Counted from the stretch's first letter, positions 322-42,355 are shown. The stretch is DNA of 64,000 nucleotides from a virus (IMGVR_UViG_3300035698_017111:1-64000), one strand, 5' to 3'. The notes: generated by a model not told the origin, from the letters alone. Translations and numbers: made by a program.

Positions 322-707
322 TAGAATGCCACTTCTCCCTCGATACTATCTGGTATTGACATGTTACCCTCATGCTCTGCAACCATATCGTCAAACCCAT
401 CGATTTGAGATTCCAAATCTGGATTCGCTTCAATATCATCACCCAAGCCAAGAAGAGCTGAGTTCTTTTTGTCCTTAGCCAACTCCATTAAATTTCGAAT
501 ACCACGATCAATATCTTTTTCTGTCTCCAGTCGAACCTTTTCGCTAAGAACATTACATTTTTTATTAAACTCCTCCTCATCACCAACCTCAATTGGGAAC
601 GACATAAATGTTCCACATTCAATATTGTCATAACGAGAACTTACAGCTTTGAGATTAACCTTACGAGAATAACTCTTTGTAATCCTAATAGACTTTTTAT
701 GTCCCAT
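321..707 (-). CDS. Hypothetical protein with acidic C-terminus
   Basis: 128-aa ORF with GGAGG RBS, co-oriented with neighbours. Confidence 0.6.
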   Translation of the reverse strand: MGHKKSIRITKSYSRKVNLKAVSSRYDNIECGTFMSFPIEVGDEEEFNKKCNVLSEKVRLETEKDIDRGIRNLMELAKDKKNSALLGLGDDIEANPDLESQIDGFDDMVAEHEGNMSIPDSIEGEVAF

Positions 708-748
708 TTTACAGCCTCCAATACAGCAATTATAGATACGTTATACGA

Positions 749-1393
749 TTAAAACAATGAAGTCTTCTCAACTAATTTACCAGCAAAGGACACGGGCACG
801 TTCGTAGATTTGGTCGCCATTTTCTTAATTTGATCTATTCTGCGTATCTCCTCAAGAATCTTCTTGTCTGTACCAAACTCACGAAACACAGAGTTTTCCA
901 AAAGAATTTTTGTCGTCTTAGAATCAACAATAGACTTATTGACATTTATTAGAAAATCAACGATAGAAGATGTGGATTGAATCTTCATTAAATGATCAGA
1001 AGCTCTTTGCCCAACACCCTTAAGGCTTACAAATGGAGCCAAAACTTCCATATCACCATTTGGACAATACCACGTTTTACTTCTATTTATTTCAGGTGGT
1101 AGAATCTTCAACTCTGGATATTCTTCTTGGAAGTGATCAATACACTCCTGAAGCTTTTCTTCATTCTTCTGTGCAGCAGAAGTCAGTATCGCACAAATAA
1201 ATTCAGTAGTATAATACGTCTTCAGATATGCCGTTTGATATGTAATGTAACCATATGCAGTCGAGTTTTTCGATATTACATTCCTTCCAGAACCGTCATA
1301 GATTAGATAATTGTGTTGCTTAGATTTCATAGACACATTATATACTGTTTCTTTTCCCATCTTTCTACAAGATACAATTTTTGATTTTTTCAT
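749..1393 (-). CDS. dnaE: DNA polymerase III alpha fragment 4: split-intein C half (43 aa) fused to the C-terminal DnaE extein (fingers end and HhH)
   Basis: MKKSKIVS..ETVYNVS..HNYLI..VISKN then S-TAYGYITYQTAYLKTYYTTEF, ILPPEINRS, SLKGVG; no OB-fold or tau-binding domain. Confidence 0.9.
   Translation of the reverse strand: MKKSKIVSCRKMGKETVYNVSMKSKQHNYLIYDGSGRNVISKNSTAYGYITYQTAYLKTYYTTEFICAILTSAAQKNEEKLQECIDHFQEEYPELKILPPEINRSKTWYCPNGDMEVLAPFVSLKGVGQRASDHLMKIQSTSSIVDFLINVNKSIVDSKTTKILLENSVFREFGTDKKILEEIRRIDQIKKMATKSTNVPVSFAGKLVEKTSLF
1265..1393 (-). mobile_element. Split intein 2, C half (IntC2)
   Basis: Basic 43-aa peptide with block F (VYNVS..HNY) ending K-N, followed by Ser+1. Confidence 0.85.
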
Positions 1394-2510
1394 ATTTTCT
1401 CTCCAAATAAAAATTACCTTTGTTGAAATATATCCACCTATAGAATCTAATCATCTCTGCTCTACCACCCATTAACCTCAAATCATATATACCTGAGTGA
1501 TTGTTTTTTCTAAAATACCTCTTAAAATTAAAACAAGTATTTTTGTCTTCTTCTATTGACTTTGAAAATAACGGAGAGGCAGTCGCAATAGAAACCCAAG
1601 GATAACCAGATTTCTTTATCAAACCTATAGAACCATCTCCATCTATTATTCCCCTATAATATGAACTTAAATATTTCTTAGGCATATTCCAATCATATTC
1701 AAGGGTAAACGTTTTTCTTTTTGTTATACCATATTTTTTTAAATCTTGAGATATTTCTGGGCAATGACATGTGAATCTAGCCATTTTACATTTTCCACCA
1801 TTTCCAATTACCTCAATAACACTACAGGACTCTCCAATTTCTTTAGCTATTCTTTCCAAAATATATCTATCGCAAACTTGTAATTGAATAGCAACTCCTT
1901 CGTAATTTTTTAAAACATACCCATCCGTGGCAAACAACCCTACCATATAAGCTTTTTTATGAGAGTTTATGGTATTAAAATAATCAACATTATAATAGGT
2001 ATATTTTTTACAAGGTCTAACATTAACGCCTCTCCTGTGAAGAACATCCAATACCGTTTTCCGTGTTAAAAAACCATATTTATGAGAAATAAATTCTGCA
2101 GTATTATTATTATTATTATAATCAACAATCATCTTCTCTTCTATATCTTTTGTTATTTTTTTGTTATATGGATTCCCCCTAACGGTTTTTATTTTGTTTT
2201 CTCTTTTGAACTTCAACAAAGAGCTTAATCTTACTTTCCGTCTTAAAGAAATGTCTTTCAAACTTACCCTGTGTTTATGTGCCCAATGGCACAAAAACCT
2301 ATAATATCTATCTCTTTTATTGGCAAAATTGAACTCATCCCTAATTCTCTGCAAAATCCTCAAAGTCAATAATTCACGGTCTTCATCTTTAATCTTTAAC
2401 AAAATACTAGAAAGAGAACAATGCCTAAAATAAAGGTTTCTTATATATGTGTAATCTAATTTACTTATTTCTTTCTTGTTCCATGGAACACACTTTTCTT
2501 TTTTATTCAT
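1365..2510 (-). CDS. Free-standing LAGLIDADG homing endonuclease between the halves of split intein 2
   Basis: Two motifs, AYMVGLFATDG and SYYRGIIDGDGSI, with an N-terminal basic/HTH-like extension. Confidence 0.85.
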   Translation of the reverse strand: MNKKEKCVPWNKKEISKLDYTYIRNLYFRHCSLSSILLKIKDEDRELLTLRILQRIRDEFNFANKRDRYYRFLCHWAHKHRVSLKDISLRRKVRLSSLLKFKRENKIKTVRGNPYNKKITKDIEEKMIVDYNNNNNTAEFISHKYGFLTRKTVLDVLHRRGVNVRPCKKYTYYNVDYFNTINSHKKAYMVGLFATDGYVLKNYEGVAIQLQVCDRYILERIAKEIGESCSVIEVIGNGGKCKMARFTCHCPEISQDLKKYGITKRKTFTLEYDWNMPKKYLSSYYRGIIDGDGSIGLIKKSGYPWVSIATASPLFSKSIEEDKNTCFNFKRYFRKNNHSGIYDLRLMGGRAEMIRFYRWIYFNKGNFYLERKYEKIKNCIL

Positions 2511-2541
2511 TTCACACCTCCGAATACAGATATATTACAAT

Positions 2542-4425
2542 CTATACTTCGGACATTATTTCAAAATCCCCTTCTATAATCTCAGAAACCTTTCTAAAGG
2601 TATTGTCAGAACACAAAAATCTATGCTCCATCGTACATTTAAATGACATGGCATTGTTTAATGTTATTTCAAAAACTTCCTGTTCCCCAGAATCTATCAA
2701 CTCCATAACCTCATCCTCCAAAGTCTCCCCATCCGAATAAGAATCTAGAATATCACCTGGTTTCAAATCTATTATTTCCATATATTCTTTAGTTTTTTTA
2801 TTAAAAACAAAAGTATCTCCAGACAAACAATGAGATTTGTTGAAAGCATATTCGCCAAACTCCACACAAATCTGCCACATGTCATTAATCAAATTAATCT
2901 GTAATTGGCTCTTGGCACAACCCTCACGAAACAATGGCTCTATCTCGTCAAGAAGAGATCTCTTCTTTTTAGCACAAGCTTTCCTTAGTTTATCTGCCTG
3001 AGCAAATGTAAAGCCAGCCAAAAGCATTGCCATGGAAATCAACTGTTCCTGATAAATCAACTGTCCATATGATTCCTTTAAAACTGGCTCCAATTTTGGA
3101 TGATCATATTCAATATCGTCTGGAAACTTTTTACCCTCTGCGTATTTATTATGCATATCACACGACAAAGGACCAGGTCTACCAAGAGCATTTGCTGCAA
3201 CAATATCATTAAAATCAGCACAACCAATAATTTCCATAACACCAGGATAATGTCGTGTCCTGACCTTGCCAGTTTTTTTACTAAGAAGAGGTTGTCCCGT
3301 CTTTCTATCCTTCATTGGGAAATCACTACCCCTAAAAGATCTACCAGATATTTGGAACAAACCTTCCAATTTATTATCGTCTATTGTTTTAAAGACCTTC
3401 TCATCGTCAGTCTCCAAATTATCAAGATCAAAATCTATCTCTTTACCAGCATCTCGAATAAGTTGTTCGGTAAGGGTCATTTGCCTAAGGTTATTCAACT
3501 GTAAGAAGTCGAACTTAAGAAGACCAATGTCCTCAATGTCATCCATGTCGAATTGTGTCGTAAGCCAATTGCCAGAAACAACCTCATCCTCAAACGACAA
3601 ACCAGCATCTGCTTTATTTTCATTCTGAACTTTAGCGATATGTAATCCAATGTCTTCTGTAATGCTTCTAGACGAAACAACAACACCGGCCGCATGTGTA
3701 CCAAACGACTTAATAAGACCTTCCAACTTACACGCCGCTTCAAAGACCTTTGGATTATCTTCCACCTCTTGCTCTAATCTATCAATTGCTTCGCCTATCC
3801 TCTTATTTGGAGGTTTAAAACTTTCATCTTCACCCATCCATTGCTTCATCTTCATTGTTGGATGGTTAGGCATAATCTTAGATATTCTCTTGGCTTCCTG
3901 GTCATTCTCTGTAGAAAATCTCTTATCACCAGGGACATTGCTTCGAGTAATATCCAATGCCTTTGCCGCAAATTGAACAGCTGCTTTTGGTTTAAAACAA
4001 ATATCTGTTCCAATTAGAGCAATCTTCTCTTCACCATACAGATCACACATGTGTTGTAGAATTGATTCTCTATGCTCAAAATCGATATCAATATCAGGTG
4101 GACTAATTCGAGATGCTTCTTTATTTAACTCAAAACGAAAAGAGAATCCTTTGGAAATATCTGGTTTCTTTTTCGTGATACACAACAAATATAGCAAAAG
4201 AGAATTTGGCTTGTTGTCTTCACCACCAATCTTTTTCTTCTGGAGAAATTCTAAAACACACTCCATAAGAGTTTCTCTTTCGGACATAAAGTCAAATTCT
4301 TCTTTTAATCTATCCTTTTCATCCTGACCAAACCCAAGTTTCTCTCCACGTCCATCAAGGAACTTCTTAATAAGAGAAAGTAGTTTTGTTTTTAATTCTA
4401 GTTTTTTACTTGACACTTCAACCAC
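2542..4425 (-). CDS. dnaE: DNA polymerase III alpha fragment 3: catalytic core fused to a split-intein N half
   Basis: SPPDIDIDF, GTHAAGVVV, GLLKFDFL, ALGRPGP, LIYQEQ, ADKLRKA, EYAFNKSH then CLSGDT...CTMEHRF intein blocks A/B; GTG start overlaps the upstream TGA. Confidence 0.92.
   Translation of the reverse strand: MVEVSSKKLELKTKLLSLIKKFLDGRGEKLGFGQDEKDRLKEEFDFMSERETLMECVLEFLQKKKIGGEDNKPNSLLLYLLCITKKKPDISKGFSFRFELNKEASRISPPDIDIDFEHRESILQHMCDLYGEEKIALIGTDICFKPKAAVQFAAKALDITRSNVPGDKRFSTENDQEAKRISKIMPNHPTMKMKQWMGEDESFKPPNKRIGEAIDRLEQEVEDNPKVFEAACKLEGLIKSFGTHAAGVVVSSRSITEDIGLHIAKVQNENKADAGLSFEDEVVSGNWLTTQFDMDDIEDIGLLKFDFLQLNNLRQMTLTEQLIRDAGKEIDFDLDNLETDDEKVFKTIDDNKLEGLFQISGRSFRGSDFPMKDRKTGQPLLSKKTGKVRTRHYPGVMEIIGCADFNDIVAANALGRPGPLSCDMHNKYAEGKKFPDDIEYDHPKLEPVLKESYGQLIYQEQLISMAMLLAGFTFAQADKLRKACAKKKRSLLDEIEPLFREGCAKSQLQINLINDMWQICVEFGEYAFNKSHCLSGDTFVFNKKTKEYMEIIDLKPGDILDSYSDGETLEDEVMELIDSGEQEVFEITLNNAMSFKCTMEHRFLCSDNTFRKVSEIIEGDFEIMSEV
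2545..2829 (-). mobile_element. Split intein 2, N half (IntN2, 95 aa)
   Basis: Starts CLSGDT, contains block B TxxH (CTMEH), acidic, ends at stop. Confidence 0.88.
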
Positions 4426-4675
4426 CTACCTTTGCTTTGAAAACATCGTCGTCATAAAGCTTATAATCTGCATCTGCAAAGAGAAAACGATCCATGCTCA
4501 GATCATATTTAATGGGATCTATGTTCGTAATCCCAAGACAATAACACACGAGGCTTCCAACGGCTGAATTGTGAACAGACAAACCTTCTATATTGTATGT
4601 GTGGGTGTTTTCTACGGAAAGATCATAAACCTTCCCTGTATATTTTGTTTTTTTTATTTTTTTTATTTTAGCCAT
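4418..4675 (-). CDS. dnaE: DNA polymerase III alpha fragment 2: split-intein C half (36 aa) plus a 49-aa DnaE extein
   Basis: MAKIKKIKK..KVYDLSVENTHTY..VHN then SAVGSLVCYCLGITNIDPIKYDLSMDRFL; ATG at 4675 preferred over 4690. Confidence 0.9.
   Translation of the reverse strand: MAKIKKIKKTKYTGKVYDLSVENTHTYNIEGLSVHNSAVGSLVCYCLGITNIDPIKYDLSMDRFLFADADYKLYDDDVFKAKVGG
4568..4675 (-). mobile_element. Split intein 1, C half (IntC1)
   Basis: Lys-rich 36-aa peptide, VYDLSV block F, terminal HN followed by Ser+1. Confidence 0.9.
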
Positions 4676-4676
4676 T

Positions 4677-5696
4677 TTAAATTCTTCCACCAGACCATTT
4701 CTTTAATTTATGATACCAATTTCTAAAACAAGAATTATCATTAAAAGATATATCATAATTATTAAAAATTTTCGTATACTTCTCTTTTAAAAAACTATCT
4801 CTCCTAACAAAAAGACCTAAATTGTGCAAATCTTTTTGATACAACAAATCATAACCCAATCCTGTTTTCTCTATTGTTGCTTGTTTTTTTGCTTCTGCAT
4901 TCAAGGAATTCCTCCCCTTCACCTCAACTATCTTCACAATATCGTCAATATTCGTCACAATAAAATCTGGGTAATGTCGCCTATTTCGACCACCGTTATC
5001 TCTATATGTGATTGGAGAACCGTCATATCTTCTTATTTGACGTATATTTTCACTTTCAAAACAATACACCACATAAAACAACTCCCAACTGCTATCAAAA
5101 AAAATTCCATTTACCTTGCCTGACAGAAAACTTTTACTTCTCCTTTTTTCGCAATAAAACGGATCATTATACATCAGTCTTATCTGTGCCAATCTTTGTT
5201 TTTCCAATGTTTCTTCCCTGTTTTGAGATATTAATTGAGATTCAGAATTATGTTTTCTCCATTCACTAGAATTGGTTGCGAACTTAAGTGAACATTTCCT
5301 ACAAATTGGCTTAGTTCCAACTATTTTTCTTCTCTTCATAGAATTAAATTGCATTTTTTCCAAATTACCACATTCAGAACATTTGAATTCAATTTCTCTT
5401 TTTGTACTCAAAATGTCTATAAACGGAATAATTCTTTCATATGGCCAAATTGTTTTATCCAGTAAATCCCAAAGAGGTTGTGGGTAGTTTTCTTTCTTCA
5501 TGTGAACTGGATTTGGTATCATTTTTTTATAACATTTTTGACAAATAGACTGTTCGTTATAGTGTTTTCTTTTTTTAAACATTCCTTTGTCTATTCTGAA
5601 AAAACAACCACATTCCTGACAAAAAAAATCCAAACGAATAGGCATAATGATCTCCTTTATTGTTGCATTATATCTATTCTTCAAACTGCCAAACAA
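4677..5696 (-). CDS. Free-standing PD-(D/E)XK (TnsA-N-like) endonuclease with N-terminal zinc fingers, between the halves of split intein 1
   Basis: Four CxxC motifs (CQEC, CQKC, CSEC, CRKC); FDSSWE...HYPDF...IVEVKG. Confidence 0.75.
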   Translation of the reverse strand: MFGSLKNRYNATIKEIIMPIRLDFFCQECGCFFRIDKGMFKKRKHYNEQSICQKCYKKMIPNPVHMKKENYPQPLWDLLDKTIWPYERIIPFIDILSTKREIEFKCSECGNLEKMQFNSMKRRKIVGTKPICRKCSLKFATNSSEWRKHNSESQLISQNREETLEKQRLAQIRLMYNDPFYCEKRRSKSFLSGKVNGIFFDSSWELFYVVYCFESENIRQIRRYDGSPITYRDNGGRNRRHYPDFIVTNIDDIVKIVEVKGRNSLNAEAKKQATIEKTGLGYDLLYQKDLHNLGLFVRRDSFLKEKYTKIFNNYDISFNDNSCFRNWYHKLKKWSGGRI

Positions 5697-5722
5697 TACC
5701 TCTTCCTATACCGATTGTTATT

Positions 5723-7114
5723 CTATCGTCCAATCAAATCAACAATATCATCATTTTCCTTAAGGTCTTTTGCATGAACCCAGACTTCTTGATCATCTCT
5801 GTTGATTAATATTAAATGATCTTCCGTACAGGTAATTTTCCTTCCATCCTCGACTTCTATTGTAATTACAGTTTCATCCACATCATACTCATATGTATCT
5901 ATAACTCCATTAACCGACCCATCATGAGAAACAACAATTTCTCCAACTTTTACTTCTTCAATGTTCTTTAAACATCCACTATCTAGTAAAACTTTATTTC
6001 CTGGAAGAAAACAACCACGACCAGCACCAATCCTGATGTTGTTATCTCTGGCCCACTTAACGTATTCCCACGTAATTAGAAAGTATCTAACAAATCCAGT
6101 AAATCCAATCGTCTCAAGTTCATCGTAGAATCTTGCACGATACACTGGCTTATCCCACAAATCCTTTTCCCTCATACCTTGTTCGGACAGAAACAAAAGA
6201 AGAGCATCTTCGTCAGTCTTGCCCCATAAATTCTTTTTATATTCAAGAAAATTACTATCAGAAGGAATGTCAAAGTTAGGAAGATCACCAGTACCTAAAA
6301 CCAAATCATAATCACACTTCTCTTCTACCTCCATCGTATTGTGTAAGAACTTTTCGTTCTCACCCTTAAAGATGGCACTCATCTTATCATATGGTTTTAG
6401 GTAATATTCAGATGAAGGCACCTGATCCTCTGGCAACGGTGAGTTTCGAGATATTGAAATCTTTAACGGATGAAATCTTGCATCATCCTTAGTTGAATAA
6501 TGAACATCATTTGTCGCAACTACCTTGATGCCAGATTTCTTTGAGAAACAAATAGTCTCTTTCGCAACTTCTATTTGTGGCTTGTATCCAGTATACATTG
6601 TTTCAAGATAATAATCATCTCCCCAAACATCTCTATACTTTCTTGCAAGATCAAAAGCCTGTTCGGGATTCCCATCTATAATATAACGAGAAAATTGACT
6701 CGACGTACAACCAGAACAAACAACCAAACCCTCATGGTGATCTTTAAGAACATCAAAAGTCAACCGTGGGAAACCATAAGTCATGTTCTTATGGGACTCT
6801 GTTGTCAGCCTCAGTATGTTTCTATAACCCTCTTCGTTTTTACAAAGAAGAGTGAGATGATATCTCTTAGATTTCTTGTCTGCAAAATCCTCCACAACAT
6901 ATGCTTCAAGACCGTAAATTGGCTTTAAACCAACCTCTTTACACTTCTTGTGAAACTTTACAAAACCACCTACTTTACCGTGGTCTGTTAATGCAACTGC
7001 TTTAAAATTCAACTCCTTGGCACGATTAACTAAATCAGAAATTTTCTGAAACCCGTCATATAACGAGTAGTCTGTGTGACAATGAAGATGAACAAATGGT
7101 ACGTGTTCACTCAT
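5723..7114 (-). CDS. dnaE: DNA polymerase III alpha fragment 1: PHP domain to the GRG motif, fused to a split-intein N half
   Basis: FVHLHCHTDYSLYDG, ALTDHG, KPIYGLEAY, ATNDVHY, IGAGRG then CFLPG..CTEDH. Confidence 0.93.
   Translation of the reverse strand: MSEHVPFVHLHCHTDYSLYDGFQKISDLVNRAKELNFKAVALTDHGKVGGFVKFHKKCKEVGLKPIYGLEAYVVEDFADKKSKRYHLTLLCKNEEGYRNILRLTTESHKNMTYGFPRLTFDVLKDHHEGLVVCSGCTSSQFSRYIIDGNPEQAFDLARKYRDVWGDDYYLETMYTGYKPQIEVAKETICFSKKSGIKVVATNDVHYSTKDDARFHPLKISISRNSPLPEDQVPSSEYYLKPYDKMSAIFKGENEKFLHNTMEVEEKCDYDLVLGTGDLPNFDIPSDSNFLEYKKNLWGKTDEDALLLFLSEQGMREKDLWDKPVYRARFYDELETIGFTGFVRYFLITWEYVKWARDNNIRIGAGRGCFLPGNKVLLDSGCLKNIEEVKVGEIVVSHDGSVNGVIDTYEYDVDETVITIEVEDGRKITCTEDHLILINRDDQEVWVHAKDLKENDDIVDLIGR
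5726..6013 (-). mobile_element. Split intein 1, N half (IntN1, 96 aa)
   Basis: Starts CFLPGNKV, block B ITCTEDH, acidic, ends at stop. Confidence 0.9.
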
Positions 7115-7791
7115 TTTGCCCTCCTCTTCATTGGCTTGGGTCTTCTCTTTTGATGAAGTACCCTATCGATAATACCAAACGCTCTTGATTCTTTTACCGA
7201 CATCCATTTGTCTAGTTCCTCCGAAAGGAAAACCTCTTCTATTTCTTTCAAAGTCCTTCCGGTGTTTCTGGAGAATATTCCGTTGAACTTTTTAGCCAAC
7301 CGATCATACTCCCTTTTATAGTAAAGAATGTGTGATGGCTTTACCTCATCAACACTTCCAGAAATTTCATGATACATGAATTCTGCATTCTTACCACCAT
7401 ATCTTTTACCAGGAGCTCCATTAGACGCAATGAGACATGCTGCACTTGCTGCCCTGCCAAGAACAATTGTTCTTATGTCACATGAGCAAGAATCCATTGC
7501 GTCGATTAACGCAAGACAATCAGGAACATATCCACCATCACTGTTGATTACAAGATGAATATCCTCTCCTGGTTCACGATCCTCAAGAATATGTATCTGG
7601 CACACCACATTCAAAATACTCTCAGTACTCACATCACCAAACAAATAAATCTTTCTCTGCTCAAGTCTCTCCATAAAATCAAACATACCCATCATACTAA
7701 GGATATGATCTGGAGCTCCCTTGTTTTCGTTTTCGTTTTCTTCTTCCTCTCCATATCCCCTGATTAATCGTTCGATGATATTCTTACTCAT
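7111..7791 (-). CDS. clpP: ClpP-family serine protease subunit
   Basis: RKIYLFG, INSDGG, GRAASAA (Ser), FMYHE (His), DKWMS (Asp), AFGIID. Confidence 0.9.
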   Translation of the reverse strand: MSKNIIERLIRGYGEEEENENENKGAPDHILSMMGMFDFMERLEQRKIYLFGDVSTESILNVVCQIHILEDREPGEDIHLVINSDGGYVPDCLALIDAMDSCSCDIRTIVLGRAASAACLIASNGAPGKRYGGKNAEFMYHEISGSVDEVKPSHILYYKREYDRLAKKFNGIFSRNTGRTLKEIEEVFLSEELDKWMSVKESRAFGIIDRVLHQKRRPKPMKRRAK

Positions 7792-7799
7792 ATTCTCTC

Positions 7800-8312
7800 C
7801 TAGTATAGGAAATGGTGGTTGTCTATTTCCTTCTTAGTCATACCCTTTTCTTCTATAATTTTTTTTCTCATGAAGATGGGAAGCTCTATACTATGCATCA
7901 TACATACGACATCAGAGAAGTATATGTTGGTGCAAAAGAACTTGTTATCAAGTTCAGTAACCAGATAGGTAAAAAACGTTCCACCCTCTTCCTTGTCAAC
8001 AAAAGACAATATTATATTAACGCCATAAAAACTAGATAACACCGAAAACAAACCTTGGCTCGTTGGAATTGTCTTCGTATGGCCATCCATATAAACCTTA
8101 ACGTTAAGGAAGGATCTGGTGGAGAGTGGCACGTCAACAAAATACTCTGGATCCAAACATTCTACCAATGCCCCAAACCTAGTGCATGGTGTTCTTGGGT
8201 CATAACAATAAGCTCTAACACGTTTAACTCTAGTGAATTCACTAAAGAAATCATGAGATTTGGTATAGAAATTTAACAAACCACCAATTTTTTCAATTGC
8301 TATAGTGTTCAT
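7800..8312 (-). CDS. Divergent bifunctional-nuclease (DUF151/BFN)-like protein
   Basis: IPTSQGLF..GGTFFTYL..FSDVVCM..LPIFMRKKIIEE resembles the RPxTHDL..GTFYA.L..PSDAIAL..PIYV pattern. Confidence 0.5.
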   Translation of the reverse strand: MNTIAIEKIGGLLNFYTKSHDFFSEFTRVKRVRAYCYDPRTPCTRFGALVECLDPEYFVDVPLSTRSFLNVKVYMDGHTKTIPTSQGLFSVLSSFYGVNIILSFVDKEEGGTFFTYLVTELDNKFFCTNIYFSDVVCMMHSIELPIFMRKKIIEEKGMTKKEIDNHHFLY

Positions 8313-9529
8313 AGTTCTATTAGATTAATCCGTCCATGTAGGAAATGGTTTTCTTCAAATGGAGACTTCATCATTTCTTTTCTTATTTCTTTTGTGAAAT
8401 ATGGCTTAACAATATCAGCGTGTCTAAATGTCAACTTCCCATCAGATATGTTGCAAATGTCCACAGGACACTTAAACTTAGTTATTTTTATGTCATTATA
8501 AAGATTGCCAGAATAACGATACAATGATGCTTCTACACACAATTTCTCCAAAGCTAAAAAATCAGTCCTCAGAGTCATACACGAGCCAGAGAGACTCTTG
8601 TATTTTGTTGGGACTGCTTTTATTTTATAGAGATCATCTCTAGAAGATGAAGATGCTTCTCTCTCAATTATGAGATCATTACAATATAGCCATTCTTCTA
8701 TTGTACCAAAAGAAGAACCCTCTTTCTCGTATAATTCTTTTATTTTAGAAAGACAACTAATTCCAGACATCAAAACACAAGGAGCGTTTGTGTCTAAATT
8801 AATAGCAGTTAATAAAAATGTATTTGATGTTGGTTTGTCTAAAAGACACCCTAAACAAATAGCATCGCTACTTGATGAAGTAATTTTAGAAGAAACATCA
8901 TCCCATCCAGCATCTGTCATGGCCGCCATTTCCATAGAAAAGCTTCTGGTGTTTGCTTCAATACTCAATGCGATAGCTGGATCTATATTCTTAAAAACAG
9001 ACATTGGACAAAGAAAAGATCGATAAGCACCAGATGGTAAGGTATGACCACCCAACCTACCCGCATTATTACTCAGTGTTCCTGGTACAATCCGTCTTCC
9101 ATCCGACTTTCTAAAAGAACGCTTTAACATAAAATCATTAATATCATCTATCTTCAGCCAATGCATGTGGTACCTTTTTATATCACCAAAAAAATGCATT
9201 CTATACGAACCAGTTGGCGGGCCAAGTATCATATATGACAAAAGAGAGTTATTGGAACTCGACATCGATAGATTTATAAAATCATCCCTATAACCATCTT
9301 CTATGACAGTGGATTCTGGGACAACGGACAAAACAGAATCAGAATCAGAATCATCAGAACTATCGTAATCTTCATTTGGAACTTTTATAATATTATTTGA
9401 TTTGGTTAAAATAGCAGAGCCAGACCCCGTGTCACTAATAAAACAAATATTCTCATTGTCCTGATATATTGAAGAAAGAATCTTCTCTTCAGAATAAATG
9501 CCCTTCTTTCTCTGTAGATAATACCTCAT
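8309..9529 (-). CDS. Hypothetical protein ending GRINLIEL
   Basis: 406-aa ORF, AGGAGG RBS, ATGA coupling to the next gene. Confidence 0.7.
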   Translation of the reverse strand: MRYYLQRKKGIYSEEKILSSIYQDNENICFISDTGSGSAILTKSNNIIKVPNEDYDSSDDSDSDSVLSVVPESTVIEDGYRDDFINLSMSSSNNSLLSYMILGPPTGSYRMHFFGDIKRYHMHWLKIDDINDFMLKRSFRKSDGRRIVPGTLSNNAGRLGGHTLPSGAYRSFLCPMSVFKNIDPAIALSIEANTRSFSMEMAAMTDAGWDDVSSKITSSSSDAICLGCLLDKPTSNTFLLTAINLDTNAPCVLMSGISCLSKIKELYEKEGSSFGTIEEWLYCNDLIIEREASSSSRDDLYKIKAVPTKYKSLSGSCMTLRTDFLALEKLCVEASLYRYSGNLYNDIKITKFKCPVDICNISDGKLTFRHADIVKPYFTKEIRKEMMKSPFEENHFLHGRINLIEL

Positions 9530-20382: not shown

Positions 20383-20571
20383 ATGTCAATAATCAAAAGA
20401 GCCACAACAATACAAACACCACAAGTCGTATTAGAGAAGAAAGGCAGCTTAGTCTGTCATGTTTGCGGTAAAGAAATCAACGATATAGAAAATTTTCAAT
20501 GCGATAAAGCAAATTGCCCAATGAGAAAGACTGGAAAACATGACCAGACCGACGATCACAATAGGGAATAG
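20383..20571 (+). CDS. Small Cys-rich protein
   Basis: CHVC...CDKANCP. Confidence 0.5.
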   Translation: MSIIKRATTIQTPQVVLEKKGSLVCHVCGKEINDIENFQCDKANCPMRKTGKHDQTDDHNRE

Positions 20572-23182
20572 ATGGTGTAGTGTAGAAAACCTACCTTTAG
20601 GTGCGAATATAGCCTTATACGAAAACATATCTTTTGAAGTTGCGGGTGCTCAGTGGATCCGAATGGATCGCAAAGGCTGGGACGGCAGGAAGCACTTATT
20701 CCATAAAACGAAGAAAAACCCAAAACAAGGTGATTTTCTTACGGGATTGCTTTCTACGGTAATCGAAATACTTTACAAAGAATATGACGTTATCCCAATT
20801 ATAAAAGACACTAGAAGGAAGCCAAAAAAAACATTGGATCTTAATTGGGATGAAAAAGATTACAAGCTTAGGGATTATCAAAAAGAAGTTGTGGCCAATA
20901 GTATTGATAAAGGCAGAGGTGTGTTGGAATGTGCTACAGGTTCTGGCAAGACGATTATTGTGGCTAAGATTATTCAAGAACTTGGGGTTAAGCCGTTTAT
21001 ATTCTACGTCCTCACTAAAGATTTAATGTATCAGGCTCAAGAAAGATTAGAAGCAACAATGCCAGGATTAGAAGTTGGTATTGTTGGTGATGGTGTTTGT
21101 AAAACAAAAGACATCACAATAATGACGGTTCAAACAGCAGTTAGAGCATTTGATTCAAAGTTGAATTTTAAAAAAGATATGAAGAAGATGCAAGATGTTG
21201 ATGATGCCGATGTCTCTTCTATTTCGGAAGAAGACATGTCTCATATTGAAACGAAAAAAGAAGAAATTCAATATATTATAGAAGAGTCTAAAGGAATATA
21301 TTTTGACGAATGTCTTGTTGGTGACACACAAATCATAGACTATAATGGAATGTTGATTCCCATAGAAAATATACAAAATGGAGACCAATTAAATGGTGGT
21401 TTTGTAAGTAATAAGTTTAAAAAAAATGTTAATAGTACCTTGAAAATAACACATCAATGTGGGTTTTTAGAAACAACAAAAACACACCCAAACATATCTA
21501 TAAGAAAAACCTCATTAAAAAAAAGTAAAAAGAGATTAACCTGGGGTGTTTATGAAGATTTATCTCAAGAAGATGTTGAAGTTATTCCATCTCAAGATAT
21601 TGAAATTGGAGATTTTCTTCTTATCCCAGAAAAAATACCACATAACCCACCCAAAAAAAATAAAATGTCGCCAAATCTGCTTAGATTAATTTCTACTATA
21701 TTGTGTGACGGACATGTAGAAAAAAAAGGTTATAGGATTAAAATAAATGTCACCAAAGATCAAGAATGGTTTTCTTCTGTTTTTGAAGAAGGACTTATAG
21801 ATTTTGGACATCAAGTTGGATATGTTATTGATTTTGTAAAACAAACAGATAATAGGGGAAACCTTCTATTATATACAAAAGATAGAAATTTTTACTCATT
21901 TATTGTTAATTATATAGGAATACCAGCCGGAAAAAAATCTAACGATATACGAATTTATAATGAATTGTGGAACAATAACCTTGAAGACTTATCGCATTTT
22001 ATTGATGGTTGTGTGTCGTGTGAGGGAGATGTGTCAACAAGGAGACTAACCATTTCTTCTTGTTCATATTCCTTTATTCAAGACATACAAACTTTACTTC
22101 TTAAATTTGGTATTATTTCTACAATTAGAGAAAAAAAAAGAAAGAACATTAAACATAATACACTTTTTTTACTCTCAATAACAGGTAAATATTTATCAAA
22201 ATTTAATTCTCGTTTTAATATTTCAATGCAAAGAAAAGCAGAATCAATTCAAAGAGAATCGTGTGGTGTTTTTAACAGAACAGTCGATCTTGATGGAGTA
22301 AGATATTTTCTTAGTAAAATCAAAAAAATTGAAATCAAAAACAAAATGTCTGTTGTATATGATTTCACCACAACCACACATAAATTCATAGCGAACAACA
22401 CACTTACACATAACTGCCATCATATTCCGGCCAAAACATGTCAAGAAGTTATTTTGAGATCTCCAAATGGCTACTATACGTTTGGTGGTTCAGCAACTCC
22501 AGTAAGAGAAGATAAATCAGAGATGTTGATCGAAGCATTGTTCGGAAGAAAAAGAGCACAAATTACTGCATCTTATTTAATTGAAAGAGGTTTCCTTGTT
22601 AGTCCAGAAATATATTTTATTAAATTAAAGTCTGAAGATAAAAGAGTATCTACTTACGCTGAAGATTATAAAAAACACATTGTTGAGTGTGATGAAAGAA
22701 ACGGACATGTTATTACAATTGCAAAGTCTTTAATAACCAAAGGTTTGCCAACAATGGTCTTGGTCCAGAGAATAGAACACGGCCAATTTATTGCTGATCA
22801 AATACCTGGAGCTGTTTTCGTTTCAGGTGAATCTAAGAAAAAAGAAAGACAACAGTTTATTAAAGACTTTAGTGCTGGAAAGATCTCTGTTCTTGTTGCA
22901 ACAACAATAGCAGATGAGGGATTGGATATTCCAATTCTATCTGCGTTAATTCTTGCTGGTGGTGGTAAATCAAAAACAAGATGCAAACAAAGAGTCGGAA
23001 GGGTTATTAGAAAAAACAAAGACAAAAAATGTGCTCTCGTATTTGACTTCATGGATATTGGTAGATGGACTAAAAAACATTCTAAGAGACGCAAAAAGAT
23101 ACTAAAAGAAGAGCCAGAATTTCAAATTAAAAACTTTAGTTCATTCGAGAAAAAATTCAAATTAACGACTGACTTATTCTAA
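20540..23182 (+). CDS. SF2 DExH helicase (UvsW/XPB-like) with an intein in motif II
   Basis: LRDYQ, ATGSGKT, FDE|intein|[24 protein letters not shown]. Confidence 0.9.
21311..22414 (+). mobile_element. Intein (368 aa) with LAGLIDADG domain
   Basis: [34 protein letters not shown] followed by Cys+1; removal restores DECHH. Confidence 0.9.
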
Positions 23183-39873: not shown

Positions 39874-40341
39874 ATGGAGGGTTTCCTTATGATTATAAAA
39901 AAGTATAAGATAACATCTGAACGGCCAGAAGAAACTGAATTCGAAGTGGTTGTTGTTAGGAACACAACAAGCACAATGAAAAAGACTTCTGTCGTTGATG
40001 AGAATGGTATTGTGATTTCCGCAAGACGAGCACCAGATGTAACAACAGATACAGACGTTAAAGAAGGTATCTCTGCAGTTTCTATTCCAAGCAGAACACC
40101 AGCCATCGTGGAGATACTTGAGAAGGGTGACCAGTTTGGCCCCACAGTAACAGTACAGTCTGAGCCAGAGCCGGATCGAGTTCGGGCAGAACCTAAAAAC
40201 TTAACAAAAGTTATGAATAACGAGCTTGGCCCAGACGGCAGACCAGCTTCTATTGATCTAAATGCTCTCATGCATGAGGATGGAGCAAAACCACAACAAT
40301 TGCCCAATCCTGGGGATATTGTCTGGGCAGACGAGGACTAA
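39874..40341 (+). CDS. Hypothetical protein
   Basis: 155-aa ORF on the coding strand; GGAGG RBS before ATG ~39889. Confidence 0.55.
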   Translation: MEGFLMIIKKYKITSERPEETEFEVVVVRNTTSTMKKTSVVDENGIVISARRAPDVTTDTDVKEGISAVSIPSRTPAIVEILEKGDQFGPTVTVQSEPEPDRVRAEPKNLTKVMNNELGPDGRPASIDLNALMHEDGAKPQQLPNPGDIVWADED

Positions 40342-40342
40342 T

Positions 40343-42355
40343 ATGATCCATCAACTTACAGCTCCAATTGAAGAAATAAAAGAATCTATGATTATTCATG
40401 GTGATTCTTTAGATATGATGAAGATGCTTCCGAGCAATTCTGTGCATTTGGTGTTCACATCACCACCATATGCTGGTTTGCTTAGGAAATATATCGAAGA
40501 TCCAAGAGATTTGGGTCAACTCCCTGTAGATAAGTTTGTAGATACGTTTATGGACTATGTTCATGAAATTACCAGAGTTTTAAGACACGAAGAGGGATGT
40601 GTTTTTATCCTAAACCTTGGTGAGAAATATGAAAATGGATTTGCCAGTTGTTATCCAGAAAAGATAATGCTTCGAACAGAGGCAGAAACCCCTCTTAGAG
40701 TGATTGATAAAGTACCGTGGTGCCTGTCTAATGATACAATGCTGTATGTCCGTTCTAAAAAGGGAGACATGCCAATGTCAATGCGTGATCTCTCTAGGCT
40801 AAAACCAGAAACAATTAAATTGTGGAATGGTGAAAATTGGACAAAGATAAAATCAATTTGGAAAAATAAAAATCCAGAAAAAATACTAAAAATAAAATTT
40901 AGAAATGGAGAAATGGTTTACTGCACAGATAACCATGGATGGCCAATACTAAATTCAACCAAATGTTCTTATAGTATTGTGAAGGCATCCGATTTATCTG
41001 TTGGTAATATTGTGTCCTCATGCAAATTACCAGAACCAAAAAATCCAAACACACCAGAGTTGATACCAGATGACTTGGGTTGGCTGGTTGGTTTGTATTT
41101 AGCGGAAGGCAGCAAAATGAAGGGTAAGAAAGCTATTCGGATTTCTGGACATTGTGACGAAAAAGATAGGCATGAAAAAACCATGCGTCTTGCCAAAAGA
41201 TATGGTGCGACTTGTAATATCTATTATCCAGAAGGAACTAAATCTGCAGAAATTCACATATATTCAAGATTTGTAGAATCATTAATAGATGAATATGTGT
41301 CTGGGAATAGTGCTTTAAACAAAAGACTCACTAATAAGTGTTGGAGTAGGAGCGATGTGTTTTTAAAAAACATCATTAAAGGCTATCTTGTCGGTGATGG
41401 ACATTGGGATTGTCCAAATGAAAGATGGAAACTCGGATTTTGCAGAAACAAGAATATTGCAGACAACATTAGAACAATTTGTTCTAGAATAGGTGCTTCA
41501 TGTAGAATAAGACCAGGTATCGTTTCTTTAAATGGTAAAAAATTCAAAAAATATTCTGGAGAAATACGATTTTCAACAAGAGATAACGACAAAAGTGATT
41601 ATGAAATTGTAGAGATCAAAGAGACGAAAAAAGCAACATCTTTTTGGGACCTTGAAGTTGAAGATGATCCGCATTTGTTCTCTCTTAATTCAGGGGTATT
41701 GACACATAACTGCAAACCGGATCCGATGCCTGGTAAAAAATCAAGACATGGAACTATTGCATGGGAACATGTTATTATCTTTGGAAGTCAATCTGATAAA
41801 ATAAATCAAAACAGAGATTTTATGTTAAGACCATATAAATCATCGACTAAAACAATCTCCACCAAAAAGAATAAAAAAGAAATCAGGAAACAAACTGGAC
41901 ATCCAATGAATGCGGCAAAGTGTTTTAAAAACATTGGTGCCGAGCCTTTTAACTACCTTGATACAGACACATTTCCAGAAGGTCCGATAGAAGATGTTTT
42001 TAATCGTATTGAATGCACTACACAGACCGTTAAGGGAAGTAATCATAAAGCACAAATGCCAGAAAAACTTGCCAGATACTTTGTTGGTGGATATTCACAA
42101 AGACAGCAATTCGTACTTGATCCATTTGGTGGTGGTGGGACAACCGCAGCTGTTGCATGGGGTCTTGACAGACAATTCGTCCACATTGATTTAGTGGCAG
42201 AAAACTGTGTAATTTCAGAAGAAAGAATTAAGAAAATACCACAAAAAAGAGATGTCTTTAATTTTCATGGCTTGTCGAAAGAATTGCCAAAGGAAAGAAT
42301 GGAAGACGTTAGTAGGCGTGTCTTGCAAGACGGAGAGAAACAAGACATCTTCTAG
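40343..42355 (+). CDS. Beta-class DNA methyltransferase containing an intein
   Basis: FTSPPY, KVPW|intein|CKPDPMP, HKAQMP, VLDPFGGGGTT. Confidence 0.88.
   Translation: MIHQLTAPIEEIKESMIIHGDSLDMMKMLPSNSVHLVFTSPPYAGLLRKYIEDPRDLGQLPVDKFVDTFMDYVHEITRVLRHEEGCVFILNLGEKYENGFASCYPEKIMLRTEAETPLRVIDKVPWCLSNDTMLYVRSKKGDMPMSMRDLSRLKPETIKLWNGENWTKIKSIWKNKNPEKILKIKFRNGEMVYCTDNHGWPILNSTKCSYSIVKASDLSVGNIVSSCKLPEPKNPNTPELIPDDLGWLVGLYLAEGSKMKGKKAIRISGHCDEKDRHEKTMRLAKRYGATCNIYYPEGTKSAEIHIYSRFVESLIDEYVSGNSALNKRLTNKCWSRSDVFLKNIIKGYLVGDGHWDCPNERWKLGFCRNKNIADNIRTICSRIGASCRIRPGIVSLNGKKFKKYSGEIRFSTRDNDKSDYEIVEIKETKKATSFWDLEVEDDPHLFSLNSGVLTHNCKPDPMPGKKSRHGTIAWEHVIIFGSQSDKINQNRDFMLRPYKSSTKTISTKKNKKEIRKQTGHPMNAAKCFKNIGAEPFNYLDTDTFPEGPIEDVFNRIECTTQTVKGSNHKAQMPEKLARYFVGGYSQRQQFVLDPFGGGGTTAAVAWGLDRQFVHIDLVAENCVISEERIKKIPQKRDVFNFHGLSKELPKERMEDVSRRVLQDGEKQDIF
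40721..41710 (+). mobile_element. Intein (330 aa) with LAGLIDADG domain
   Basis: CLSNDT..CTDNH..LVGLYLAEG..IKGYLVGDG..FWDLEV..THN followed by Cys+1. Confidence 0.9.

Follow-up and report, generated by a model that had tools for sequence, protein, structure and literature searches.

How many polypeptides does a phage make from a DNA polymerase gene that is broken into several reading frames, and which of them are rejoined? The dnaE locus that raises this question lies on the minus strand at positions 749–7114 of a window of 64,000 nucleotides, the first 64 kb of a 146,772-bp IMG/VR virus record (IMGVR_UViG_3300035698_017111; metagenome-assembled, CheckV completeness 77%), and all coordinates given below without a locus name are counted in that window. 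Fractured genes, in which a split intein breaks a host gene and a free-standing homing endonuclease gene lies between its halves, have been described before, including the dnaE loci DnaE-1 to DnaE-3 at sites other than the cyanobacterial one (Dassa, London, Stoddard, Schueler-Furman & Pietrokovski, 2009; PMC2677866); in the model of these authors an endonuclease invades a mini-intein, and the endonucleases they reported are GIY-YIG or Vsr-like in type. Fractured dnaE has thus been known since 2009, and the window holds a denser version of that layout. Our best explanation, to which we give a probability of roughly 0.8, is a single dnaE in four coding pieces carrying two selfish cassettes, from which two splices would build two polymerase subunits.

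Results

A single dnaE gene in four coding pieces

The locus comprises six open reading frames (ORFs), A to F, spread over three frames (2/1/2/0/1/2). ORF A (5723–7114) encodes a 367-residue PHP/N-palm host segment (extein) ending in GAGRG, followed by a 96-residue N-terminal intein half (IntN1); ORF B (4677–5645 from its ATG, extending to 5696 as a TTG ORF) encodes a nuclease; and ORF C (4418–4675 from ATG, with a GTG at 4690 possible; 85–90 residues) encodes a 36-residue C-terminal half (IntC1) ending in SVHN and a 49-residue extein beginning SAVGS. ORF D (2542–4425) continues with a 532-residue extein ending in AFNKSH and a 95-residue IntN2, ORF E (1365–2510) encodes 381 residues with two LAGLIDADG motifs, and ORF F (749–1393) encodes a 43-residue IntC2 ending in VISKN and a 171-residue extein that starts with STAY. 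Pfam recognizes PHP, DNA_pol3_alpha, finger and HHH_6 domains in the locus, with Intein_splicing/Hint on A, C, and D and LAGLIDADG_3 on E. ORFs, domain matches, and frames together bear out the order given in a preliminary description of this DNA (PHP-IntN1, nuclease, IntC1-extein, core-IntN2, LAGLIDADG nuclease, IntC2-C-terminus).

Reading TAG, TGA, or TAA as sense, each singly, joined none of the six ORFs, and the other frames of nuclease genes B and E contain 23–42 stops. A Shine–Dalgarno (SD)-like sequence precedes each ORF, and no terminator-like site was found within 600–7900. The two nuclease genes have a guanine-plus-cytosine fraction of about 0.31 (B) and 0.30 (E), against 0.36–0.40 in most exteins. 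No further DNA_pol3_alpha match occurs elsewhere in the 146,772-bp record, in which the locus is the sole dnaE; a megablast search of GenBank phages gave no match, and tblastn found relatives that are all below 60% identity.

Every extein piece is intact, and the pieces jointly span the whole family profile. Extein 1 (6014–7114; PHP domain and start of the palm) matches Pfam PHP (2.3e-45) and DNA_pol3_alpha and aligns end to end with uninterrupted relatives. Extein 2a (4418–4567; 49 residues and a TGA), which runs from SAVGSLV to DRFLF plus a short tail and would end the N subunit, covers DNA_pol3_alpha positions 65–96. Extein 2b (2830–4425), the start of the proposed C subunit, covers positions 69–259 and the finger domain; it holds a clade-specific insertion, the PDIDIDF palm motif, and the fingers, and is 52–56% identical to its counterparts in loci L010 and L025. 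Extein 3 (749–1264; 171 residues and a TAA; STAYGYITYQ...) carries the HhH domain (Pfam HHH_6) and is contiguous with extein 2b in uninterrupted relatives. When the pieces were compared by tblastn with 90 viral loci holding relatives of DnaE, the gap between exteins 1 and 2a and that between exteins 2b and 3 were both 0 in nearly all loci; the interruptions in the window are therefore genuine insertions, and the junctions restore invariant host motifs. These are the junctions predicted earlier (a slash marks the insertion point): GAGRG/SAVGS at site 1 (GRG/S), identical to uninterrupted relatives, and AFNKSH/STAY at site 2, where FNKSH/STAY matches the consensus.

Both fractures display the features of a fractured gene in the sense of Dassa et al (2009). 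At the first these are IntN blocks A and B, IntC blocks F and G, a +1 nucleophile, a nuclease gene on the same strand between the halves, and the restored host motif; at the second, CLSGDT...TMEH on D, TVYNVSM...VISKN/S on F, ORF E between them, and the restored FNKSH/STAY.

A third break without an intein separates two probable subunits

The preliminary description had dnaE fractured twice; the two split-intein fractures stand, and a third break had been overlooked. This break, at 4418–4425 between C and D, contains no intein: the GTG start of D overlaps the TGA of C by 8 nucleotides in another frame, with AAGGTAGGTGG immediately upstream of D. Relatives are divided at the same point. Eighteen clusters of N-terminal DnaE pieces (P0004–P0021; 415–479 residues, 46–56% identical, intein-free) cover about four-fifths of ORF A, and the five sequences read from them end just past DRFL(F/Y)...DFF, where C ends and D begins; more than 20 representative clusters hold D-like pieces of about 520–575 residues that begin where C and D part and terminate in an IntN. 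Locus L025 has an N gene of 454 residues and a C gene of 715 residues with three unrelated ORFs between them, and in L225 an 83-residue ORF with the same IntC-extein content as C is followed by several kilobases of unrelated genes. Judged from these gene arrangements, a two-subunit DnaE is what the clade of the window normally encodes.

This bears directly on the three-piece ligation suggested earlier, which calls for a middle polypeptide with IntC1 at one end and IntN2 at the other. Since C and D are distinct genes, each in its own frame, and the split is conserved in relatives, IntC1 (on C) and IntN2 (on D) do not occur on one polypeptide; that proposal falls, and each splice would build another subunit. 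The two splices would most likely yield an N subunit of 416 residues and a C subunit of 703 residues, not one chain.

Three N-subunit pieces from relatives (P0007, P0009, and P0014) have acidic C-terminal tails ending in a common (D/E)xEGFKY motif, absent from piece C of the window, which may be a docking peptide. The start of D (4066–4425) degenerately echoes the GSLV..ITxxDP..RF segment (4421–4567) that ends the N subunit. The basis of this resemblance is the overlap in Pfam profile positions (65–96 against 69 onward) and the tblastn alignment of both parts to one stretch of uninterrupted relatives; BLASTP between the two was not significant and does not support the apparent duplication.

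The C/D position is also occupied in a further locus: the dnaE of L021 (L021:4953–9950) has a split intein at RFLSIER/S..PDIDIDF, which is where C and D part in the window, with no nuclease gene between its halves. The same gene bears a contiguous HNH-bearing intein at AFNK/SHS, and an ORF upstream of it fuses a B-like zinc-ribbon PD-(D/E)XK domain to a domain that appears, by its motifs, to be dCMP deaminase-like.

Intein 1, its alleles, and nuclease B

IntN1 (5723–6013; 96 residues and a TAG, with the Cys codon from 6013) begins with Cys1 in CFLPGN, has TEDH as block B, and matches Pfam Intein_splicing, Hint, and Hom_end_hint. IntC1 (4568–4675; 36 residues from its ATG, which lies 1 nucleotide past the TAA of B and is preceded by GGTGGAAG) contributes blocks F and G as VYDLSVE..HTY..SVHN, matching Intein_splicing positions 118–155, such that intein 1 has Cys1, TEDH, VYD...HTY in block F, and HN/S. 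The nearest solved structure to IntN1 is the gp41-1 intein (6riz, 6qaz), likewise encoded by a fractured gene of a phage; the resemblance, which spans about 55 residues, is weak (E 3e-4), and host protein and endonuclease both differ.

Uninterrupted alleles, which the preliminary description proposed to look for in related phages, exist at both sites (L025 is one such at each). At site 1 the empty alleles are those of L010, L025, and P0005. P0003, a near relative of P0005, has a contiguous mini-intein there that is homologous to IntN1 and IntC1, and contiguous inteins also occupy the site in L026 (473 residues) and P0034/P0035; in the latter pair the endonuclease is probably of the LAGLIDADG type, to judge from a LAGLIDADG-like motif and, in P0034, a match to Pfam Hom_end_hint. 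The fractured state with a homolog of nuclease B is found in four other viral contigs (L063, L223, L224, and L225). Homologs of IntN1 occur on many PHP pieces as well as within the P0003 mini-intein, and those of IntC1 in L063, L223–L225, and P0003. Further PHP-IntN pieces are P0001, P0002, and P0022–P0032, among which P0030, P0027, and P0024 lie on contigs that equal in length those of the B homologs P0126, P0128, and P0131, and so presumably share contigs with them.

Nuclease B (4677–5645, with AAAGGAGA before the ATG at 5645) consists of two CxxC...CxxC zinc ribbons and a TnsA-like PD-(D/E)XK core, in which E205, D244, E258, and K260 are invariant in 19 sequences and place the protein in the PD-(D/E)XK class. 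An AlphaFold2 model (mean predicted local distance difference test score 86) gave TnsA as its top Foldseek matches (9bw1_M, 1f1z, 1t0f; probability 1.00), and the Pfam TnsA-like N family matches weakly, below its cut-off (24.8 against 26.5 bits). Tn7 TnsA is the best fold match to the catalytic core, and both have E...D...ExK; B differs in its two N-terminal zinc ribbons, in lacking a TnsB/TnsC context, and in lying inside an intein, and the two are only 13–14% identical. The 16 close homologs of B are all unnamed proteins. A Vsr-like/EDxHD (I-Bth0305I) assignment was rejected, as the homolog alignment has no invariant His and there is no Vsr match in Pfam; the Foldseek matches listed (about 40 of at least 500) include neither a Vsr nor an I-Bth0305I entry.

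Three relatives with a B homolog at this site are interrupted further. The dnaE of L063 (L063:9989–16183) combines fracture 1 (IntN, B homolog, IntC) with a second break, ...GFASYA / MFNASHS, whose gap holds a free-standing LAGLIDADG gene; neither of the two flanking pieces showed an intein half. That of L225 (L225:8415–20238) is in at least five pieces over about 12 kb, with fracture 1, the small IntC-extein ORF, a contiguous mini-intein at FNK/SH, and gaps that contain many unrelated ORFs. L030 (L030:6591–14972) has a single dnaE ORF of 2793 residues with five contiguous inteins; within the coding region of its GRG/S intein, a homolog of nuclease B (7969–8913 in that locus) lies in another frame, the intein frame being open for 314 codons. 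Codon shuffles left a mean of 20 stops in this frame and never fewer than 9 (5000 shuffles), and the corresponding frame has 42 stops in the window and 49 in L063; the arrangement in L030 suggests that a gene for a homing endonuclease has been overprinted on the linker of an intein. L063, L225, and L030 show multiply interrupted dnaE genes to be common in large uncultured phages.

Intein 2, nuclease E, and the cyanobacterial site

IntN2 (2542–2829; 95 residues and a TAG) begins with Cys1 in CLSGDT and has TMEH as block B. IntC2 (1265–1393; 43 residues; TVYNVSM..QHNY..VISKN), whose ATG lies inside the last 29 nucleotides of E and follows GGAGAG, shows TYN instead of the Asp of block F and terminates in SKN/S. 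The intervening nuclease E (1365–2510; SD GGAGGTG) has an N-terminal extension of about 180 residues and is a predicted LAGLIDADG endonuclease, by its matches to Pfam LAGLIDADG_3 and PHROG 4645 (endonuclease; 3.6e-34) and its motifs GLFATDGYV and GIIDGDGSI; its identity is 44% to the ORF in the corresponding position of L010 and 37% to that of L042.

As at site 1, the alleles form a series. L025 is empty, P0259 and similar sequences have a mini-intein, and L010 is fractured with a homologous LAGLIDADG gene; homologs of IntN2 at FNKSH/S are those of L010 and of the contiguous mini-inteins P0192, P0259, and P0238. In L042 (L042:9989–14632) and P0137 a split intein homologous to intein 2, accompanied by a LAGLIDADG gene homologous to E, sits two residues upstream, at FNx/SHS (FN(M)/SHS in L042), and the L042 gene is fractured as in the window. 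The SHS motif offers a Ser+1 at both positions, and rows from the two are interspersed in the IntN tree, where resolution is poor.

The nearest solved structures to IntN2 are the cyanobacterial DnaE inteins (Ssp, Npu; 4lx3, 4kl5, 1zd7, 7qil). In phmmer searches IntN2 scores 1.3e-8 against 7qil and about 2e-5 against Npu, with DnaB next among intein types at about 0.01; cyanobacterial IntN representatives match IntN2 at 3e-8 to 4e-7, and the top PDB match of IntC2 is the Npu DnaE IntC, a weak one (E 0.43). IntN2 is specifically related to these inteins, host protein and host motif are shared, and cyanobacterial DnaE IntC halves resemble IntC2 in lacking the penultimate His (Ser precedes the terminal Asn in those read). 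The window nevertheless does not hold the cyanobacterial allele. The cyanobacterial site, N/CFNKSHSTAY, was confirmed in at least 120 genome loci; with the junction read directly in eight of them, the six-residue distance claimed between EY/CFNKSH and site 2 is confirmed. The cyanobacterial intein has Cys+1 and halves at distant loci, whereas site 2, downstream at FNKSH/S, has Ser+1 and halves 1.2 kb apart with a LAGLIDADG gene between them.

A profile search for IntN2 took in the whole of P0137, so that its matches are ranked by extein, and we used it as a census of junctions. Among the best 150 representative DnaE cores, 73 have an intein at FNx/C, nine at FNxSH/C (the site of the window), and four at the cyanobacterial EY/C; most FNx/C cores kept for the tree end about 90–135 residues past the Cys and are hence split. 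It is possible, though we put it forward tentatively and with some doubt, that phages carry a very large family of homologous split and mini-inteins at the DnaE FNKSH motif (sites EY/C, FNx/S, and FNxSH/S), with intein 2 as a member and the cyanobacterial intein as one branch that arose from a phage-type fractured gene minus its endonuclease.

Two intein families in one gene

Of 86 residues aligned between IntN1 and IntN2, 24 are shared. A tree built from 72 IntN segments places the site-1 and FNKSH families on opposite sides of a branch supported at 99% in the Shimodaira–Hasegawa-like approximate likelihood ratio test (SH-aLRT), and the cyanobacterial inteins form a clade of their own (95% SH-aLRT); 43 of the 69 branches are open, and with so poor a resolution the tree gives neither a direction of transfer nor a number of site switches. 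Mutual orthogonality of the two pairs in the window is plausible, and a reasonable expectation because cross-splicing would give two useless chimeras. Both inteins keep the catalytic residues (Cys1, TxxH, terminal Asn, and Ser+1), which they share with cis-splicing mini-intein relatives, and both are predicted to splice.

Neighboring genes and further inteins

Directly upstream of dnaE, a gene for a ClpP-like protease is present in the window (7111–7791) and in L010 (5983–6675), L025 (9308–9967), and L026 (9372–9986), and in L010 and L025 the downstream genes are retained as well. The same phage has three more intein matches, each within one open frame, at 20540–23182 and 40262–42355 in the window and at 72315–73382 in the genome; one is in a superfamily 2 helicase, along with a LAGLIDADG domain, another in a DNA methylase, and the third beyond the window.

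Discussion

We propose that the six ORFs are probably co-transcribed, given their individual SD-like sequences and the lack of a terminator-like site between them. Acidic IntN1 on A would pair with basic IntC1 on C, and trans-splicing would join Gly367 to Ser, restoring GAGRG-SAVGS and producing an N subunit with the PHP domain and the first palm segment. Independently, IntN2 on D would pair with IntC2 on F to join His532 to Ser, restoring FNKSH-STAY in a C subunit with palm, fingers, and HhH domain. The two subunits would then associate non-covalently, as is required in relatives with an ordinary gene for each. B and E are candidate homing endonucleases, each of which would have entered and split a pre-existing mini-intein, and they may now spread their cassettes into cassette-free dnaE alleles of co-infecting relatives.

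Several observations weigh against this account. L010 reads through the C/D point as one ORF of 1068 residues, such that the two-subunit state is not universal in the clade. IntN1 (−14) and IntN2 (−15) are both acidic and both IntC halves basic (+4 and +8); with the same polarity in both pairs, charge steering cannot separate them, and any selectivity would have to come from a specific interface. Two residues of textbook inteins, the Asp of block F and the penultimate His, are missing from IntC2, and the contig is metagenome-assembled.

The continuous ORF of L010 would suit a scheme in which three polypeptides are ligated in tandem into one DnaE, the C/D break being bypassed by a frameshift or reflecting a sequencing error, and the middle piece then bearing IntC1 and IntN2. 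We regard this as unlikely: C stands +1 in frame to D, only a 5-nucleotide interval (GTGGT) could host a shift, and GGU-UGA-A permits no cognate +1 re-pairing, so that a +1 shift was rejected, as was stop-codon reassignment, which merged no ORF. D moreover has its own GTG start behind AAGGTAGGTGG, the N pieces of many relatives stop exactly at this point, and L025 and L225 have other genes in the gap.

The departures in IntC2 (Asn for the block-F Asp, Lys for the penultimate His) could instead mean that one or both split inteins are dead for splicing and serve as mere non-covalent clasps in a polymerase of three or four chains. This too we find improbable, given the catalytic residues kept in both inteins and the Ser that likewise replaces His in cyanobacterial DnaE IntC halves. 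The same TYN and SKN (with its penultimate Lys) are conserved in contiguous mini-inteins at FNKSH/S (P0192, P0259, P0238, P0257, and P0203), which must splice in cis because their polymerases must work. A reading of the locus as an assembly chimera or a pseudogene in decay, with replication left to another polymerase, is conceivable for a metagenomic contig estimated as 77% complete and a polymerase search covering the 146,772-bp record, and is very improbable against intact exteins that cover the whole family profile, a sole DNA_pol3_alpha match, the same arrangements in independent metagenomes (L010, L042, L063, and L223–L225), and the synteny with ClpP-like and downstream genes held in L010 and L025.

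The reading that we prefer, two splices and two subunits, sets the window beside several known systems. As in the fractured genes of Dassa et al (2009), a split intein interrupts the host gene and its halves flank a free-standing homing endonuclease gene, all on one strand; unlike them, the window has two such cassettes and an intein-less split in one gene, and its nucleases are of the TnsA-like PD-(D/E)XK and LAGLIDADG types. The C/D break recalls intein-less genes in pieces, such as nrdA-a/mobE/nrdA-b of Aeromonas phage Aeh1 (PMC3045599) and the SbcD-like locus of Dassa et al (2009), in that it would give two polypeptides that assemble unligated and that related loci have other genes in the gap; it differs in having no endonuclease gene, its ORFs overlapping by 8 nucleotides. 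Engineered tandem trans-splicing (Pinto et al, 2020; PMC7090010) also places two split-intein pairs in one cell on parts of one enzyme; the window has no fragment with both an IntC and an IntN, and would perform two parallel two-piece ligations. A search of titles and abstracts for two natural split inteins in one gene found none, an outcome that argues weakly for their absence.

The two pairs could be given a trial as an orthogonal set, although many such sets already exist; their biotechnological value is modest, as a library of 15 mutually orthogonal split inteins and a one-pot assembly with five orthogonal inteins are already reported by Pinto et al (2020).

For the biology of these elements the locus offers more. 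Together with its relatives, the window supplies the full series of the 2009 gene-breaking model (empty site, mini-intein, split intein with endonuclease gene) at two sites, and it extends the fractured-gene layout by two endonuclease types, a zinc-ribbon TnsA-like PD-(D/E)XK enzyme and a free-standing LAGLIDADG enzyme. A large phage family may be linked to the cyanobacterial split intein of DnaE, one of the staples of protein engineering, which sits a few residues away; if that tentative reading is true, homologous inteins can drift between adjacent insertion sites, and the two pairs of the window would be a naturally co-evolved orthogonal set. This one gene would show how far selfish elements can break an essential replication enzyme with rebuilding still possible, here by two trans-splicings and one non-covalent assembly.

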